A model generated the notes under the pieces. The model did not search any database and was not told the origin of the DNA. It worked only from the letters and a program-made list of their open reading frames with translations. Position numbers and translations under genes: made by a program. 64,000 nucleotides of DNA. It comes from Acidimicrobiales bacterium (GTDB lineage: Bacteria > Actinomycetota > Acidimicrobiia > Acidimicrobiales > Aldehydirespiratoraceae). Shown in pieces: positions 36,166 through 64,000 of this stretch (positions are counted from its first letter, which is position 1; the number at the start of each line of letters is the position of its first letter). The stretch covers positions 111,262 to 175,261 of the forward strand of contig OZ220743.1 of NCBI GenBank assembly GCA_965116965.1, read 5' to 3'.

Positions 36166-37389
36166 CTAGCGGGCGGAGGCTGACAGCAATTCGTAGGCGT
36201 TGTCCCGCATCACCTTGCGGACCTCGTCGTCGCTGAAGCCGGCGATGTCGTCCAGGTAGGAGGCCGGCTCGGCCAGACCCTCGGCGTGGGGGTAGTCCGA
36301 GCCGAACAGCATCCGGTCGGCCCCGATGCAGTCCTTGATGAGGGCCATGTCGTCCTCGAAGTAGGGCGACACCCACACGTTCTCGATGAAGACCTCCACC
36401 GGGTGGCGCTTGAACTCCCACGGCATCTTGCCGTGGCAGATCTTGAGGTTGCGCAACAGGTCGGGGACCCACATGGCCCCGTTCTCGATGGTGGCCAGGC
36501 GCAGATCGGGGAAGCGGTCGAGCACGCCGTGGCAGATCAGGGCCGCGAACGTGTCGGAGATCGAGCGGTCCGAGAAGGCCACCAGCGGGAAGGCCATGTG
36601 CTTGAACGCCTCGAACTGGCCCCGGGACGGCTCCCACACCTTGCCGTACTGGACGGTGCCGTTGAGGCCGGCGTGCATGGCCAGCGGCACCCCGGCCTCC
36701 TCCAGCCGGGCCCAGATCGGGTCGTAGTCGGCCATGCCCGGCGACTGGTAGCCGCTTCCGGTGGGCACCGGGCCGGGAACGGTGCACACGATGCGGGCGC
36801 CCATCCCCAGCAGCCGCTCCAGCTCGACCACCGCCAGCTCCGGGTCGGCGAAGGTGAGCATGGGCACAGCGAAGATGCGGCCGTCGCGGTCGAAGCCCCA
36901 GTCCTCGTCGAGCCAGTTGTTGAACGCGCTGAAGGCGGCGTGCAGGGCTGCAATGTCACGCTTGAGGGCCTCCTGCATGCCCACGCCCTGGGTGGGGAAC
37001 AGCAGCACCGACTCCAAACCCTGGCTGTCCATCAGCTCGACGCGGGCGTCGCGGTCGCGGAAGCCGGGGTGGTCCTCTAGGGGATCGAGGTCGCCGAACA
37101 TGGCCGCGATGTCGCGCCCCTCCAGGTTGCGGCCCCGGAAGTAATCCTCGAGGCTGCCCGGCTTGGCGATCGGGTCGAAGGTCGGGTTGGGGATGAACTT
37201 GTTGACCTTGCCGGCCACCATGAAGCGCTTTCGACCGTCGATCTCCGCCCACTGCATGCAGCGCTTCTTCATGGACGGGTCGATGTGGCGAATGAAGGCG
37301 TCGGGCGCCTCGTAGTAGTGCTCGTCCACATCGAACGCCCGGAATCCCAGTGCGGCTTGGGTCGTCATTGCTTCGAGGCTACCGGCCAC
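36166..37389 (-). CDS. amidohydrolase-2 family protein
   Basis: FDVDEHYYEAPDAF..., LLFPTQG..., FGSDYPHAEG. It is a paralog of 61628..62806. The start may be ATG 37368. Confidence 0.8.
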   Translation of the reverse strand: MAGSLEAMTTQAALGFRAFDVDEHYYEAPDAFIRHIDPSMKKRCMQWAEIDGRKRFMVAGKVNKFIPNPTFDPIAKPGSLEDYFRGRNLEGRDIAAMFGDLDPLEDHPGFRDRDARVELMDSQGLESVLLFPTQGVGMQEALKRDIAALHAAFSAFNNWLDEDWGFDRDGRIFAVPMLTFADPELAVVELERLLGMGARIVCTVPGPVPTGSGYQSPGMADYDPIWARLEEAGVPLAMHAGLNGTVQYGKVWEPSRGQFEAFKHMAFPLVAFSDRSISDTFAALICHGVLDRFPDLRLATIENGAMWVPDLLRNLKICHGKMPWEFKRHPVEVFIENVWVSPYFEDDMALIKDCIGADRMLFGSDYPHAEGLAEPASYLDDIAGFSDDEVRKVMRDNAYELLSASAR

Positions 37390-37481: not shown

Positions 37482-37841
37482 ATGGACCCGGCGATAACCG
37501 CCACCGTCATCGGCGTGCTGCTAACCGTCGCCTTCGGCGCCTTCGCTACCGCGTTCGCCTGGTTCAGGTCCGACGTGATCGCTCGCTTGGACAAGATGGA
37601 TGAGAAGTCAGACAGCCGGTTCGAGAAGATCGACGGCAGGTTCGAGAAGATCGACGGCAGGTTCGAAGAGATCGACGGCAGGTTCGAAGAGATCGACGGC
37701 AGGTTCGAGAAGATCGACGCCCGGTTCGAGAAGATCGACGCCCGGTTCGACCGGCTGGAGACGACCGTTCAGACCCTGATTGTGACGCTCGCCCAGAGAG
37801 GGCATTTGACGGACCCAGACGACTCGGGGCCCGAAGACTGA
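37482..37841 (+). CDS. small membrane-anchored coiled-coil protein with six and a half 21-bp (heptad) repeats
   Basis: MDPAITATVIGVLLTVAFGAFATAFAWFRSDV (one TM helix), then RFEKIDG x2, RFEEIDG x2, RFEKIDA x2, RFDRLET, and a C-terminal LAQRGHLTDP. It lies behind a roughly 90-bp AT-rich tract. TAACTT sits 7 nt upstream of the ATG, and I saw no Shine-Dalgarno. Confidence 0.65.
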   Translation: MDPAITATVIGVLLTVAFGAFATAFAWFRSDVIARLDKMDEKSDSRFEKIDGRFEKIDGRFEEIDGRFEEIDGRFEKIDARFEKIDARFDRLETTVQTLIVTLAQRGHLTDPDDSGPED

Positions 37842-61627: not shown

Positions 61628-62806
61628 TCAGACCGCCAGCAGCTCCTTCAGGTTCCCGCCCATGATCTTGGCGGTATCGGCCCGCGGCAGCGACAGCGGC
61701 AGGTCGTCGTAGAAGCTCACCGGATCGCCCAGGCCCTCGGGGTGGGGGTAGTCGGAGCCGAACAGGATCCGGTCGGGGCTCATGACGTCGATCAGCCCCT
61801 CCAGCCCGTCCTCCCAGAAGGGATTGACGTAGACGTTGCGCCGGAACGCCTCGAGGGGATGCTCACCGAAGTCCTGAGGCAGCTTCTTGTAGACGCCCTC
61901 GAGCTTCTCCAGAAGGGGCCTCACCCAGGTGCCGCCGTTCTCGATGGTGGCGATGCGCAGGTCGGGGAACCGGGTGAAGGCCCCGTGGCAGATCATCGCG
62001 GTCATCATGTCGCTGACGGCCCGGTTCTGCATCACCAGCAGGCGCAGAGGGTTGGGCTTGAACGGCAGGAACTCGGTCTTGCCCTCCCAGATCGAGGCCA
62101 GGTCGGCGTAGCCCGAGTCCGACGCGTGCATGCCCACCAGCACCCCGGCCTCCTGCACCCGGGCCCAGAACGGATCGAACTCGGGCAGGCCCGGCGAGCG
62201 CGGCCCCCGCAGGCCCCAGGCCGGGGCGGGACGGATCAGGATGCAGCGGGCGCCCTTGTCCAGGCACCAGTCCAGTTCCTCGATGGCCTTCTCCACGATG
62301 GGCAGGGTGATGATGGGGGTGGCGAAGATCCGGTCGCGGTAGTTGAACGTCCACTCGTCGTAGATCCACTCGTTGAATGAATGGACGACCACGTGGGTCA
62401 GGTCGGGATCGTCGCGCATGCGCTCCTCGAGCAGGCTGGCCAGCGTCGGGAACATGAGCGAGCCCTGGATGCCGAGTTCGTCGAGATGGGGCAGCCGGGC
62501 CTCGGCGTTGCGGGCCCAGTCGGGACAGCGGATGGGCTCGCCGAAGATCTCCCGCAGCGACTTTCCCTCGGGGTTGCCGTGCCGGTAGTACTCCTCCTGA
62601 GCGCCGGGAGGGGCCACCACCTCGAAGGTCGGGTTGGGTATGTAATCCGATATCAGGCCCTTGATGGCGATCTTGGTGCGGCCGTCGACCTGCACGTAGC
62701 GGATGGCGCCCTTGTAGTCGGCGGGGAGATGCCGGGTGAAGGCGTCCTCCGTCTCGTACATGTGGTTGTCGGAGTCGTATACCGGAAAGCCGAGGTCGCG
62801 AGCCAT
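61628..62806 (-). CDS. amidohydrolase-2 family protein
   Basis: ATG 62806 is preceded by GAAGGAGGG. MARDLGFPVYDSDNHMYE..., LFGSDYPHPEG. Paralog of 36166..37389. Confidence 0.8.
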   Translation of the reverse strand: MARDLGFPVYDSDNHMYETEDAFTRHLPADYKGAIRYVQVDGRTKIAIKGLISDYIPNPTFEVVAPPGAQEEYYRHGNPEGKSLREIFGEPIRCPDWARNAEARLPHLDELGIQGSLMFPTLASLLEERMRDDPDLTHVVVHSFNEWIYDEWTFNYRDRIFATPIITLPIVEKAIEELDWCLDKGARCILIRPAPAWGLRGPRSPGLPEFDPFWARVQEAGVLVGMHASDSGYADLASIWEGKTEFLPFKPNPLRLLVMQNRAVSDMMTAMICHGAFTRFPDLRIATIENGGTWVRPLLEKLEGVYKKLPQDFGEHPLEAFRRNVYVNPFWEDGLEGLIDVMSPDRILFGSDYPHPEGLGDPVSFYDDLPLSLPRADTAKIMGGNLKELLAV

Positions 62807-62924
62807 GACGGTCCCTCCTTCACGGACGCCGATAGATCTCCAACCATATCCGTGCTCGGTCCTGGTCGGCATGAGCGTGCGCTGGATCTGCTGGCCATAT
62901 CAGGTTATTTGATGCTTTTTAGTG

Positions 62925-62954
62925 TTGCATCATTGCGCTGCGGCCTTCTATAGT
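62925..62954 (+). promoter_or_regulatory. sigma-70-like promoter positioned for a leaderless transcript of the small-protein gene
   Basis: TTGCAT (62925), 18 nt, TATAGT (62949), 6 nt (gacgct), then GTG 62961. A T-rich tract lies upstream. The layout and part of the sequence are shared with the promoter at 59088-59116. Confidence 0.5.
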
Positions 62955-62960
62955 GACGCT

Positions 62961-63458
62961 GTGGACGCGATCACGCTCACGGACCTCTTGGCAGTCGTAG
63001 CCGCTGTCCTCGGCCCGACGCTGGCCGCCGTCTTGGCTTTGGCCCGTTACCAGCACAAGGACAGCATCGAGACCCACCGATTGATCGCAGAGGCCAGAGA
63101 CGAGTTCCGCACCGGGATCGCAGAGGCCAGAGACGAGTTCCGCACCGGGATCGCAGAGGCCAGAGACGAGTTCCGCACCGGGATCGCAGAGGCCAGAGAC
63201 GAGTTCCGCACCGGGATCGCAGAGGCCAGAGACGAAACCCGCCAACTGTTCGACAAGGCCGTCGACGAAACCCGCAACCTGTTCGGAGAGGCCAGGGACG
63301 AGAACCGCGAGCACCGCCGCGAGAACGGTGAGATCCTCAAGGAAGTGATCCGGAGCCTCGCCGACGCCCGCGAGAGGCTGGCGCGCATCGAGGGACACTT
63401 CGGCATCGGGGGGAGTCCGAGAGACGAGGATGGTCGAGGCACGGCTGACGCCGCCTGA
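62961..63458 (+). CDS. membrane-anchored coiled-coil protein with four and a half 33-bp (11-residue) repeats
   Basis: The GTG start gives VDAITLTDLLAVVAAVLGPTLAAVLALA (TM), then IAEARDEFRTG x4, IAEARDETRQLF..., and RERLARIEGHFGIGG. The start was chosen by analogy with the MDPAI... N-termini of the paralogs and by the promoter spacing. Confidence 0.55.
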   Translation: MDAITLTDLLAVVAAVLGPTLAAVLALARYQHKDSIETHRLIAEARDEFRTGIAEARDEFRTGIAEARDEFRTGIAEARDEFRTGIAEARDETRQLFDKAVDETRNLFGEARDENREHRRENGEILKEVIRSLADARERLARIEGHFGIGGSPRDEDGRGTADAA

Positions 63459-64000
63459 GAGACCGCTGGAGCCGAGCACTCGTGGCGCGGTTGGCCACGA
63501 CTCGGAGGAGAGACGGGTCCGGGAGCCCGCGTACCTGCCAACCGCTGAGCGATTCGTGCGCCATGTGGCGGGTGAATGGGGGGACCGGGCCTTGGTGCTG
63601 CTGGGCGAGCGACGCTTGAGCTACCGGGAGCTGGAGGCGGAGTCCCGGCGGATGGCGCGGGCTCTGCTGGCGAGCGGCGTGACCCGCGGCAGCCGGGTGG
63701 GGCTGCTGGCGCCGAACGGGCCGGAGTGGGTGGTGGCCTGGCTGGCCGCGGCCCGGATCGGGGCCGTGGTGGTGCTGCTCAACACGTTCTACAAGGCGCG
63801 GGAGCTGGGCTGGGCGCTGGCCCACTGCGAAGCCGAGGTGCTGCTCACCGTGGACCGGTACCTCAACCACGACTACGCCGCCCGGCTGGAAGAAGCCATG
63901 GGAGGCCTGGCCGGCGCGAGCCGCGAGACGCTCTCCTGCGGGACCCATCCGCGCCTGCGGTCGGTGTGGATGTGGAGCGACGCCGGGTCCGCGCCGTCCT
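63430..64000 (+). CDS. AMP-dependent acyl-CoA synthetase/ligase, 3'-partial (runs off the window)
   Basis: My own translation has no stop from ATG 63430 to the window end: ...PTAERFVRHVAGEWGDRALVLLGERRLSYRELEAESRRMARALLASGVTRGSRVGLLAPNGPEWVVAWLAAARIGAVVVLLNTFYKARELGWAL. This is a typical N-terminal region of adenylate-forming enzymes. The start position is uncertain. Confidence 0.65.
   Translation, partial: MVEARLTPPERPLEPSTRGAVGHDSEERRVREPAYLPTAERFVRHVAGEWGDRALVLLGERRLSYRELEAESRRMARALLASGVTRGSRVGLLAPNGPEWVVAWLAAARIGAVVVLLNTFYKARELGWALAHCEAEVLLTVDRYLNHDYAARLEEAMGGLAGASRETLSCGTHPRLRSVWMWSDAGSAPS

Follow-up and report, generated by a model that had tools for sequence, protein, structure and literature searches.

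A predicted membrane-anchored repeat protein with a leaderless-type promoter, probably inserted upstream of an acyl-CoA ligase gene in Acidimicrobiia

What is the small open reading frame (ORF) that lies between a divergent amidohydrolase gene and an acyl-CoA ligase gene, and what might its product do? The frame, here called locus 3, stands near the 3' end of the window, the whole stretch of 64,000 nucleotides (nt) that was analysed (C1:111262-175261 of G000, an Acidimicrobiia genome of 4.12 Mb with 68% G+C). Positions without a contig prefix are those of the window. The original prediction had described the frame as a distant member of the family seen at loci 1 and 2, with a 33-bp coding repeat, a leaderless promoter layout and a 3' end overlapping the ligase start. 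Our analysis indicated a genuine gene, with its own promoter, for a single-pass membrane protein whose helical rod gains and loses in-frame repeat units. Taken together, the statements on the gene, its architecture and its evolution are held with high confidence. A role as a length-tunable membrane stalk or tether is a tentative proposal that could easily be wrong; the reading as a whole, role included, is one towards which we lean. New here are the definition of a subfamily, a promoter class recognised genome-wide, and evidence that the small gene and its promoter were inserted together.

The small gene and its promoter comprise the following features. Alignment A1 contains 28 sequences, otherwise 36-93% identical to the window protein.

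62897..62921, + strand: A+T-rich block immediately 5' of the -35 box, at the position of an UP element or activator site; kept in the same-locus copies
62925..62930, + strand: -35-like hexamer TTGCAT (GTGTTGCATC), invariant in seven copies of the locus
62949..62954, + strand: -10 hexamer TATAGT of the TANNNT type (CTATAGTG), invariant in seven copies of the locus
62961..63458, + strand: small gene of 165 codons plus stop, GTG start 62961-62963, TGA 63456-63458
62976..63044, + strand: predicted transmembrane helix, about residues 6-28, from the AlphaFold2 helix and the flank charges
63045..63080, + strand: juxtamembrane motif RYQHKDSIETHR; Q31 and D34 nearly invariant in alignment A1
63081..63311, + strand: rod of seven 11-residue (hendecad) units, residues 41-117, from the periodicity of 3.66 and the unit table
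63083..63235, + strand: perfect 33-bp x 4.6 tandem array of GIAEARDEFRT units (Tandem Repeats Finder, TRF; 100% matches, score 306)
63354..63401, + strand: conserved C-terminal motif SLADARERLARIEGHF, residues 132-147, from alignment A1
63402..63455, + strand: disordered Gly/Pro/acidic tail ending in ...TADAA (predicted local distance difference test score, pLDDT, about 50; without secondary structure)

Homology searches bore on whether the frame is a gene. A search of a 5.8-billion-protein collection returned 58 homologues, all unnamed, and of 1.84 billion cluster representatives, a profile matched 216 at E <= 1e-3, 90 of them at E <= 1e-10. The small protein matched members of its subfamily with E-values of 8e-78 to 1e-5. 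Searches of Pfam, NCBIfam, PADLOC, PHROGs, the PDB sequences and Rfam gave no family assignment for locus 3, the last with no match at all; homology to an unrelated family, an outcome that the original prediction had allowed for, did not emerge from these library searches. The GC contents at codon positions 1, 2 and 3 were 0.69, 0.48 and 0.82. Between copies, synonymous and non-synonymous codon differences stood at 80:62 in the N-terminal 40 codons and 77:51 in the C-terminal 38, and the excess of synonymous differences indicated purifying selection. The conserved ends of the small gene were 92-97% identical in DNA between locus lineages, compared with 82-88% for the adjacent ligase gene.

Two lines of evidence placed the start codon at GTG 62961, as the original prediction had proposed. 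In distant homologues, the protein opens with M(D/E)xITL, whose first codon corresponds to this GTG. In the seven copies of the locus (the window and L089-L094), both promoter boxes were invariant and the spacer was variable, with a 1-nt indel. This pattern indicated that the DNA upstream of 62961 is non-coding and ruled out GTG 62922 as a start. On these comparisons, 62961-63458 is a genuine gene: it encodes a protein and has a conserved promoter of its own. The clear sequence signature makes the family annotatable; at present, gene callers misplace the starts of the closest homologues, calling them from an upstream codon (MLHHCAAAFYSDAV...). For the small gene and these homologues, the called start is a GTG or ATG inside the -35 box (62922 in the window), which adds 13-16 spurious residues (MLHHCAAAFYSDA...).

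The promoter reads TTGCAT, an 18-nt spacer, TATAGT, gacgct and GTG. The predicted layout TTGCAT-18 nt-TATAGT-6 nt-GTG (62925-62963) could be read straight from the sequence, and so could the part in common with locus 2, namely gTTGCAYCAnTG, then GTGACnnn, the start codon and GAC. The leaderless layout turned out to be family-wide. TTGNNN-N16-18-TANNNT-N6-8-start was present in 38 of the 44 family genes with a clear start, and in 30 of these 38 the -10 box ended 6 nt 5' of the start codon. TTGCAT was the commonest -35 hexamer (15/38). The 28 nt 5' of the -35 box had a mean A+T content of 66%, compared with 32% genome-wide, and the family consensus 5' of and into the box was aattTcAt.at.ttT.a.GTTGCaTc. 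The strict pattern TTGCA[TC]-N16-19-TANNNT-N5-8-ATG/GTG occurred 16 times in the genome, against 0-3 times in five first-order Markov simulations. When an ORF of at least 40 codons followed (14 sites), it encoded a small protein with a membrane helix and a repeat-rich helix in 10 cases, including locus 2a and locus 3. About two-thirds of the genome-wide occurrences of this promoter class, defined by the conserved -35 box and the A+T-rich block, thus mark one protein superfamily. No operator-like inverted repeats were found in 62800-63520.

The -10 box is centred 9.5 nt 5' of G62961. In Mycobacterium tuberculosis, the centre of TANNNT lies 7-12 bp upstream of transcription start sites, and promoters have no conserved -35 box (PMC3898074). 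Locus 3 resembles actinobacterial leaderless genes, as mapped in that species, in that a TANNNT box is centred about 9-10 nt before a GTG or ATG start codon that would double as the transcription start (PMC3898074). This geometry would place transcription initiation at the GTG or right beside it, and the small-gene mRNA is therefore probably leaderless. The locus 3 family differs in having a conserved TTGCAT -35 box and an A+T-rich upstream block; since M. tuberculosis has no -35 consensus, the conserved box is unusual. A promoter class that is unusual for Actinobacteria could give a handle on regulation in unculturable organisms.

Does locus 3 belong with loci 1 and 2? It contains all elements of the RYQH...RLARIEG subfamily (A1): M(D/E)xITL, a membrane helix, RYQHxD(S/G)xKTR, units, SL(A/G)DARERLARIEGHLGIG and an Ala-Ala tail. 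It lacks the LLRSD of the locus 1/2 family (alignment A2) and has ALARYQHKDS in that position. Hidden Markov models (HMMs) of A1 and A2 found 18 and 12 ORFs in this genome, with an overlap of 0 at E < 0.01, and the A2 HMM gave no match to locus 3 at the same threshold. Because neither HMM found genes of the other family, locus 3 was placed in a distinct subfamily.

A deeper relation was suggested by profile comparison. Alignment of A1 with A2 by hhalign gave a probability of 87.7% and an E-value of 3.4e-6 over 44 columns (the repeats, and RLARIEG against RIDRLEG). The score was 39.4, compared with 11.5 +/- 2.4 (maximum 18.7) for 60 column-shuffled controls and 21 for a reversed alignment. A bridging paralogue of 99 aa at C1:2426630 (+) combines SLKSD of the locus 1/2 type with IRERLARIEA of the locus 3 type and three HGRLLAD units. 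Locus 3 also has the promoter form of the locus 1/2 family: TTGCAY, 17-18 nt, TANNNT, 6 nt and the start codon. These comparisons suggest that locus 3 belongs to a distinct subfamily within one superfamily with loci 1 and 2. Its earlier description as a distant family member therefore stood at the superfamily level, by hhalign, promoter type and the bridging paralogue, and failed at the level of one family, as the HMMs do not cross-match.

Common to all three loci are a membrane helix that begins only a few residues into the protein, variable numbers of tandem 11- or 7-residue units, the motif R(I/L)xR(L/I)EGxL with a Pro/acidic tail after it, the leaderless-type TTGCAY-N17/18-TANNNT-N6 promoter, and one clade of Acidimicrobiia. 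Locus 3 differs from loci 1 and 2 in having RYQHxDS rather than LLRSD, a longer and far more conserved C-terminal motif (SLADARERLARIEGHLGIG), and mostly Ala-Ala ends.

Known families of similar build were compared with the small protein. DivIVA-like proteins (DivIVA, GpsB, FilP, Scy) carry an N-terminal RGYDxxEVD ahead of their coiled coil (PMC9858780). This motif is absent from the small protein, and the Wag31 model scored 20.4 bits against a cut-off of 260. Among defence and phage families (PADLOC, PHROGs), only weak, repeat-driven matches were found (ZorA tail, E 0.0025; phrog_9415, E 1.8e-7), and the repeat-less ortholog P0010 had no PADLOC or PHROGs match.

In species genomes, 132 loci were found, all in metagenome-assembled genomes of Acidimicrobiia; the labels of these genomes are Ca. 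Aldehydirespirator(aceae), Poriferisocius, Spongiisociaceae or unclassified. Of 301 genomes sampled evenly across the class, 4 had a match. Within the window's own family, matches occurred in 60 of 107 genomes and 4 of 11 genera, with several copies per genome; within its own genus they occurred in 36 of 38 genomes, G000 not counted. On this sampling, the genes are a multigene family confined to a few genera of one marine and sponge-associated Acidimicrobiia family. A family with no Pfam, NCBIfam or PDB relative is thereby added to the small-protein inventory of uncultured sponge-associated Acidimicrobiia. Its practical importance is limited for now.

The A1 signature begins with an acidic N-terminus, a hydrophobic helix, RYQHxD(S/G)xKTR and a variable count of 11- or 7-residue units. 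It continues with SL(A/G)DARERLARIEGH(L/F)GIG and a Pro/Gly/acidic tail. Within it, the C-terminal motif SLADARERLARIEGH(L/F) is near-invariant: L133, D135, R137, R139, L140, A141, R142, I143, E144 and G145 were identical in 28 of 28 sequences. DARERLARIEG was encoded by 37 distinct DNA versions across 52 loci, indicating that conservation acts on the peptide and not on the DNA. These synonymous versions ruled out the motif as a DNA-level element. The 3D structure of the monomer was modeled using AlphaFold2 with the family alignment. In the model, one continuous helix spans residues 6-146 (mean pLDDT 87), and the tail is disordered.

The charges on both sides of the membrane helix were counted in 55 homologues. 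The 9 residues before the helix contained 0 Lys/Arg in 55/55, and the 15 residues after it contained a mean of 3.4; the C-terminal flank was the more positive in 55/55. By the positive-inside rule, the N-terminus would be outside and the rod cytoplasmic. The product is thus inferred to be a single-pass membrane protein with a short acidic N-terminus outside and the rest in the cytoplasm. At the other end, 49 of 58 homologues terminate in Ala-Ala. The predicted tag of the genome's own transfer-messenger RNA (tmRNA; gene at C1:3068399-3068794) is AEDDALVLAA, and the terminal Ala-Ala is a possible ssrA-like turnover signal for ClpXP or FtsH.

The opposite orientation, N in and C out, would make the rod an exported surface fibril, comparable to M proteins or Lpp, with repeat variation driven by interaction with host or phage or by the width of the envelope. 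In favour of this, the family is restricted to its lineage and expanded in sponge symbionts, and hypervariable in-frame repeats are typical of surface proteins. Positive charges precede the membrane helix in distant relatives with long N-terminal extensions, and a C-terminal Ala-Ala could equally be read by an extracytoplasmic tail-specific protease. However, the flank charges described above are the reverse of those of a signal anchor, no signal peptide or lipobox was found, and a highly charged helix of 135 residues would have to cross the membrane with no recognisable export signal. We consider an exported fibril unlikely.

The rod itself has a clear periodicity. In residues 41-117, hydrophobic residues recurred every 3.66 residues with a power of 112; at 3.50 the power was 1.6. 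Such spacing is that of hendecads (11/3), in which I/L, A and F occupy positions a, d and h. For the C-terminal 30 residues, the value of 3.57 comes nearer to a heptad pattern.

An 11/3 helix could also lie flat on the inner membrane for stress protection or shaping, as in apolipoproteins, late embryogenesis abundant (LEA) proteins, perilipins and alpha-synuclein. The 3.66-residue periodicity is of that type, the protein is already tethered to the membrane, and the best Pfam matches were Apolipoprotein A1/A4/E (PF01442) and ApoLp-III. Yet the PF01442 score was 22.5 bits, far under the gathering threshold of 90, and only 1 of 28 family members matched it at E <= 0.1. The hydrophobic stripe (I/L, A, F) is narrow and flanked by equal acidic and basic residues rather than by Lys/Arg. 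Protein P0010 has the membrane helix and the C-terminal motif but one unit only, which suggests that the repeats are dispensable and that the C-terminal motif is the invariant part. A flat helix on the membrane is therefore rather improbable in our judgement.

The number of repeat units differs between copies of the same locus. The 33-bp x 4.6 coding array of the original prediction was recovered by TRF, which also followed degenerate 33-bp units after the perfect array as far as 63306. The polymorphism in repeat number that it had proposed to look for was present among the seven same-locus copies. Their variable regions had 77 (window), 55 (L089), 11 (L090), 26 (L091), 77 (L092), 77 (L093) and 59 (L094) residues, and unit numbers ranged from 7 down to the single unit of L090, which encodes P0010. 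A different unit was amplified in each lineage: GIAEARDEFRT x 4 in the window, LLDKARDENRQ x 2 in L089, GIAESRDEFRT x 2 and LFDKASDQSRQ x 2 in L092, and GIADARDEFRT x 2 in L093.

The same behaviour was seen across the family. A DNA tandem array was detectable in 42 of 49 full-length family genes from species-representative genomes. The array periods were all divisible by 3; 28 genes had 33 bp, 3 had 66 or 99 bp, 4 had 21 bp and 3 had 54 bp (33 + 21). Such periods indicate that length changes mostly by whole coiled-coil units. These comparisons mark the rod region as a hotspot where 33-bp units are gained and lost in frame, with some steps of 21 bp, and it offers a clean natural case of repeat evolution restricted to whole coiled-coil units (33, 21 and 54 bp). 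Slipped-strand events or unequal recombination between 33-bp units would alter the rod by whole helical repeats. As 11 residues make 3 turns and 7 make 2, the helix register would be kept while the distance changes. Calculated at 1.5 A per residue, the rod would extend over about 8 nm from the membrane to the motif's end in L090, compared with about 18 nm in the window.

What could such a protein do? We tentatively propose that it may be a length-tunable membrane stalk or tether. Paired as a hendecad coiled coil, the long cytoplasmic helix would carry the invariant SLADARERLARIEGH(L/F) motif at about 8-18 nm from the membrane, depending on unit number, and would also present the flexible, Ala-Ala-ended tail. 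An abundant, strongly expressed homo-oligomeric stalk would then dock a partner, or itself, through the C-terminal motif.

Known stalks provide an analogy. Sub-threshold library matches were dominated by peripheral-stalk and stator proteins, namely AhaH, F-type ATP synthase b and b', FliH and SctL. The b subunit dimerises via hendecads in a right-handed coiled coil (PMC6131620). Like the predicted locus 3 protein, the b subunit (PF00430) has about 160 aa: its short N-terminus lies outside, one helix crosses the membrane, and a long charged helix lies in the cytoplasm. Unlike it, the locus 3 protein is multicopy and length-variable, has its own invariant C-terminal motif, lies outside any atp operon and scored far below all cut-offs (PF00430, 10.5 against 28 bits; NCBIfam PRK05759 and related models, 15.6 against 131). 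The b subunit is thus, by analogy, the closest architectural counterpart and not a family relation.

A second analogy concerns length. Streptococcal M proteins and Braun's lipoprotein Lpp are exported and wall- or lipid-anchored; M proteins vary in size through in-frame repeats, and Lpp is a length-setting tether. The resemblance to locus 3 lies in a helical rod that changes length through recombination between in-frame DNA repeats, and in a rod length that would set the distance from a membrane or wall. The locus 3 protein differs in having no signal peptide, lipobox or LPXTG and in being predicted to be cytoplasmic.

Several points weigh against the proposed stalk and the reading built around it. 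The positive-inside rule is the single basis of the topology, and the charges in some distantly related proteins with a long N-terminal extension suggest the reverse orientation. The oligomeric state was deduced from periodicity only, as the AlphaFold2 model is a monomer, and rod length might vary neutrally, not adaptively. In the locus 3 protein a charged residue precedes the terminal Ala-Ala, whereas the tmRNA tag of the genome has Leu there, which makes a degron role uncertain. The Pfam domains of 57 upstream and 59 downstream neighbours revealed no recurrent neighbour or orientation, and no fused domain was found, so nothing in them points to a partner. A strict TTGACA/TATAAT sigma-70 scan also missed the locus 3 promoter, because TTGCAT matches TTGACA at 3 of 6 positions. 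The comparative promoter evidence outweighs this miss, which itself speaks only weakly against the promoter.

A bolder version of the stalk proposal can be stated. The roughly 30 leaderless mini-genes might form one regulon of homo-oligomeric membrane-stalk rulers, in which repeat number sets the distance of a shared cytoplasmic partner that binds RLARIEG, selected slippage of 11 or 7 residues retunes this distance, and Ala-Ala provides rapid turnover. We doubt that this would hold in full and give it little weight.

How did the small gene come to stand before the ligase gene? The surrounding features are as follows.

61628..62806, - strand: divergent neighbour, an amidohydrolase-2 gene (PF04909, E 1.1e-23), with GGAGG before the likely start ATG 62806
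To about 62820: extent of the amidohydrolase homology to other species of the genus
62821..63500, + strand: candidate lineage-specific insert with the upstream region, the promoter, the small gene and about 40-60 nt past its stop; boundaries approximate
63430..63458, + strand: 29-nt overlap of the small-gene 3' end and the ligase start
63430..64000, + strand: acyl-CoA ligase gene (AMP-binding; PF00501, E 2.6e-29), continuing past the window, 572 codons in the genome

Five metagenomic contigs had the 29-nt overlap and the gene order CoA-transferase, amidohydrolase (-), small gene (+) and ligase (+). Elsewhere in the genus, seven species have the amidohydrolase and ligase genes next to each other; a spacer of 70-610 nt separates the two, and a family gene 5' of the ligase gene was not found in them. 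These species are homologous to the window as far as about 62820 and again from 63498-63523 onwards. The adjacency and the homology gap point to an insertion of about 680 nt. Most simply, the promoter and the small gene would be a lineage-specific insertion in a recent ancestor. The alternative is repeated loss in the other species.

The original prediction had placed the small-gene stop (63458) 29 nt inside the ligase start region and asked whether the ligase starts at 63430 or further downstream. ATG 63430 was conserved in 6/6 locus copies that retain the ligase gene. In G000 and close relatives it was the only in-frame ATG, GTG or TTG upstream of the ERR(F/V)REPxY segment, which settled the choice in its favour. 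The ligases of the seven other species start about 10 codons before the conserved ERRFREPGY(V/E)PTAERF segment. CTG 63535, which lies behind GGGAG, was rejected as a ligase start, as the ERRFREPGY segment upstream of it is conserved at the protein level in the ligase orthologs of other species. Codons 11-37 of the ligase gene had 38 synonymous and 103 non-synonymous differences, which is almost neutral, compared with 305:138 in codons 41-126. The first 37 or so ligase codons (63459-63540 in the window) would be a new N-terminal extension created by the insertion of the small gene. The inserted mini-gene would thus now supply the start codon, and probably the promoter, of the neighbouring enzyme gene.

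No terminator-like site was found on the + strand between the two genes, which suggested transcription of both from the small-gene promoter. The ligase gene is probably co-transcribed with and translationally coupled to the small gene. In this arrangement, the small ORF could be a mere 5' leader, or upstream ORF, that delivers ribosomes to ATG 63430. The overlap is kept in the six copies that retain the ligase gene, the terminator is missing, and ATG 63430 has no good Shine-Dalgarno sequence at the usual spacing. However, homologues of the small gene occur in dozens of unrelated contexts, often with a convergent gene next, and ligase orthologs in other species of the genus do without it. The protein is under strong purifying selection, and the flanks of the gene are better conserved in DNA than the ligase gene, by the identities given above. 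Within the overlap, 3 of 4 substitutions were synonymous in the small-gene frame, whereas 4 of 4 were non-synonymous in the ligase frame. A leader without a function of its own is therefore very improbable, and we retain a protein-coding gene as our reading.

Locus 3 was also considered as a multicopy mobile cassette, prompted by the seemingly different context of L091. This was rejected, as BLAST analysis showed that L091 is the same locus: its downstream part matches DNA past the ligase gene, the ligase gene itself is missing at a scaffold gap, and its upstream part has its match at another place in G000. BLAST found no further copies of the locus 3 flanks in the genome. A fused domain suggested by a 608-aa open frame at C1:911089 was likewise rejected, as the frame contains only a small paralogue with a spurious upstream open frame.

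At locus 1, an Amidohydro_2 gene (36166-37389, -) lies divergent to the gene at 37482 (+) and is paralogous to the amidohydrolase neighbour of locus 3. Since there is no recurrent neighbour family-wide, the presence of an amidohydrolase gene next to both loci is probably a coincidence, or reflects that divergent promoter regions tolerate insertions.

A dispersed repeat of about 55-105 nt, with more than 200 copies of 77-97% identity in the genome, was observed at L091:492-597. Examples in G000 are C1:146058, C1:157725 and C1:159990, which correspond to 34797, 46464 and 48729 of the window.

Two near-identical genes at C1:1795983 (-) and C1:1800637 (-), 4.6 kb apart, encode proteins of 216 and 223 aa that differ in repeat number. 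Each product has a Pro/Ala-rich N-terminus, a single membrane helix and 11-residue repeats (TKLEDDIDTRF), and the charges suggest the opposite orientation. At C1:1488022 (+) and C1:1488292 (+), tandem WHQQR...RLSRIEGFLGIG mini-genes of 87 and 73 aa were found. The first has a leaderless-type promoter and the second does not, an arrangement that resembles the tandem pairs at loci 1 and 2.

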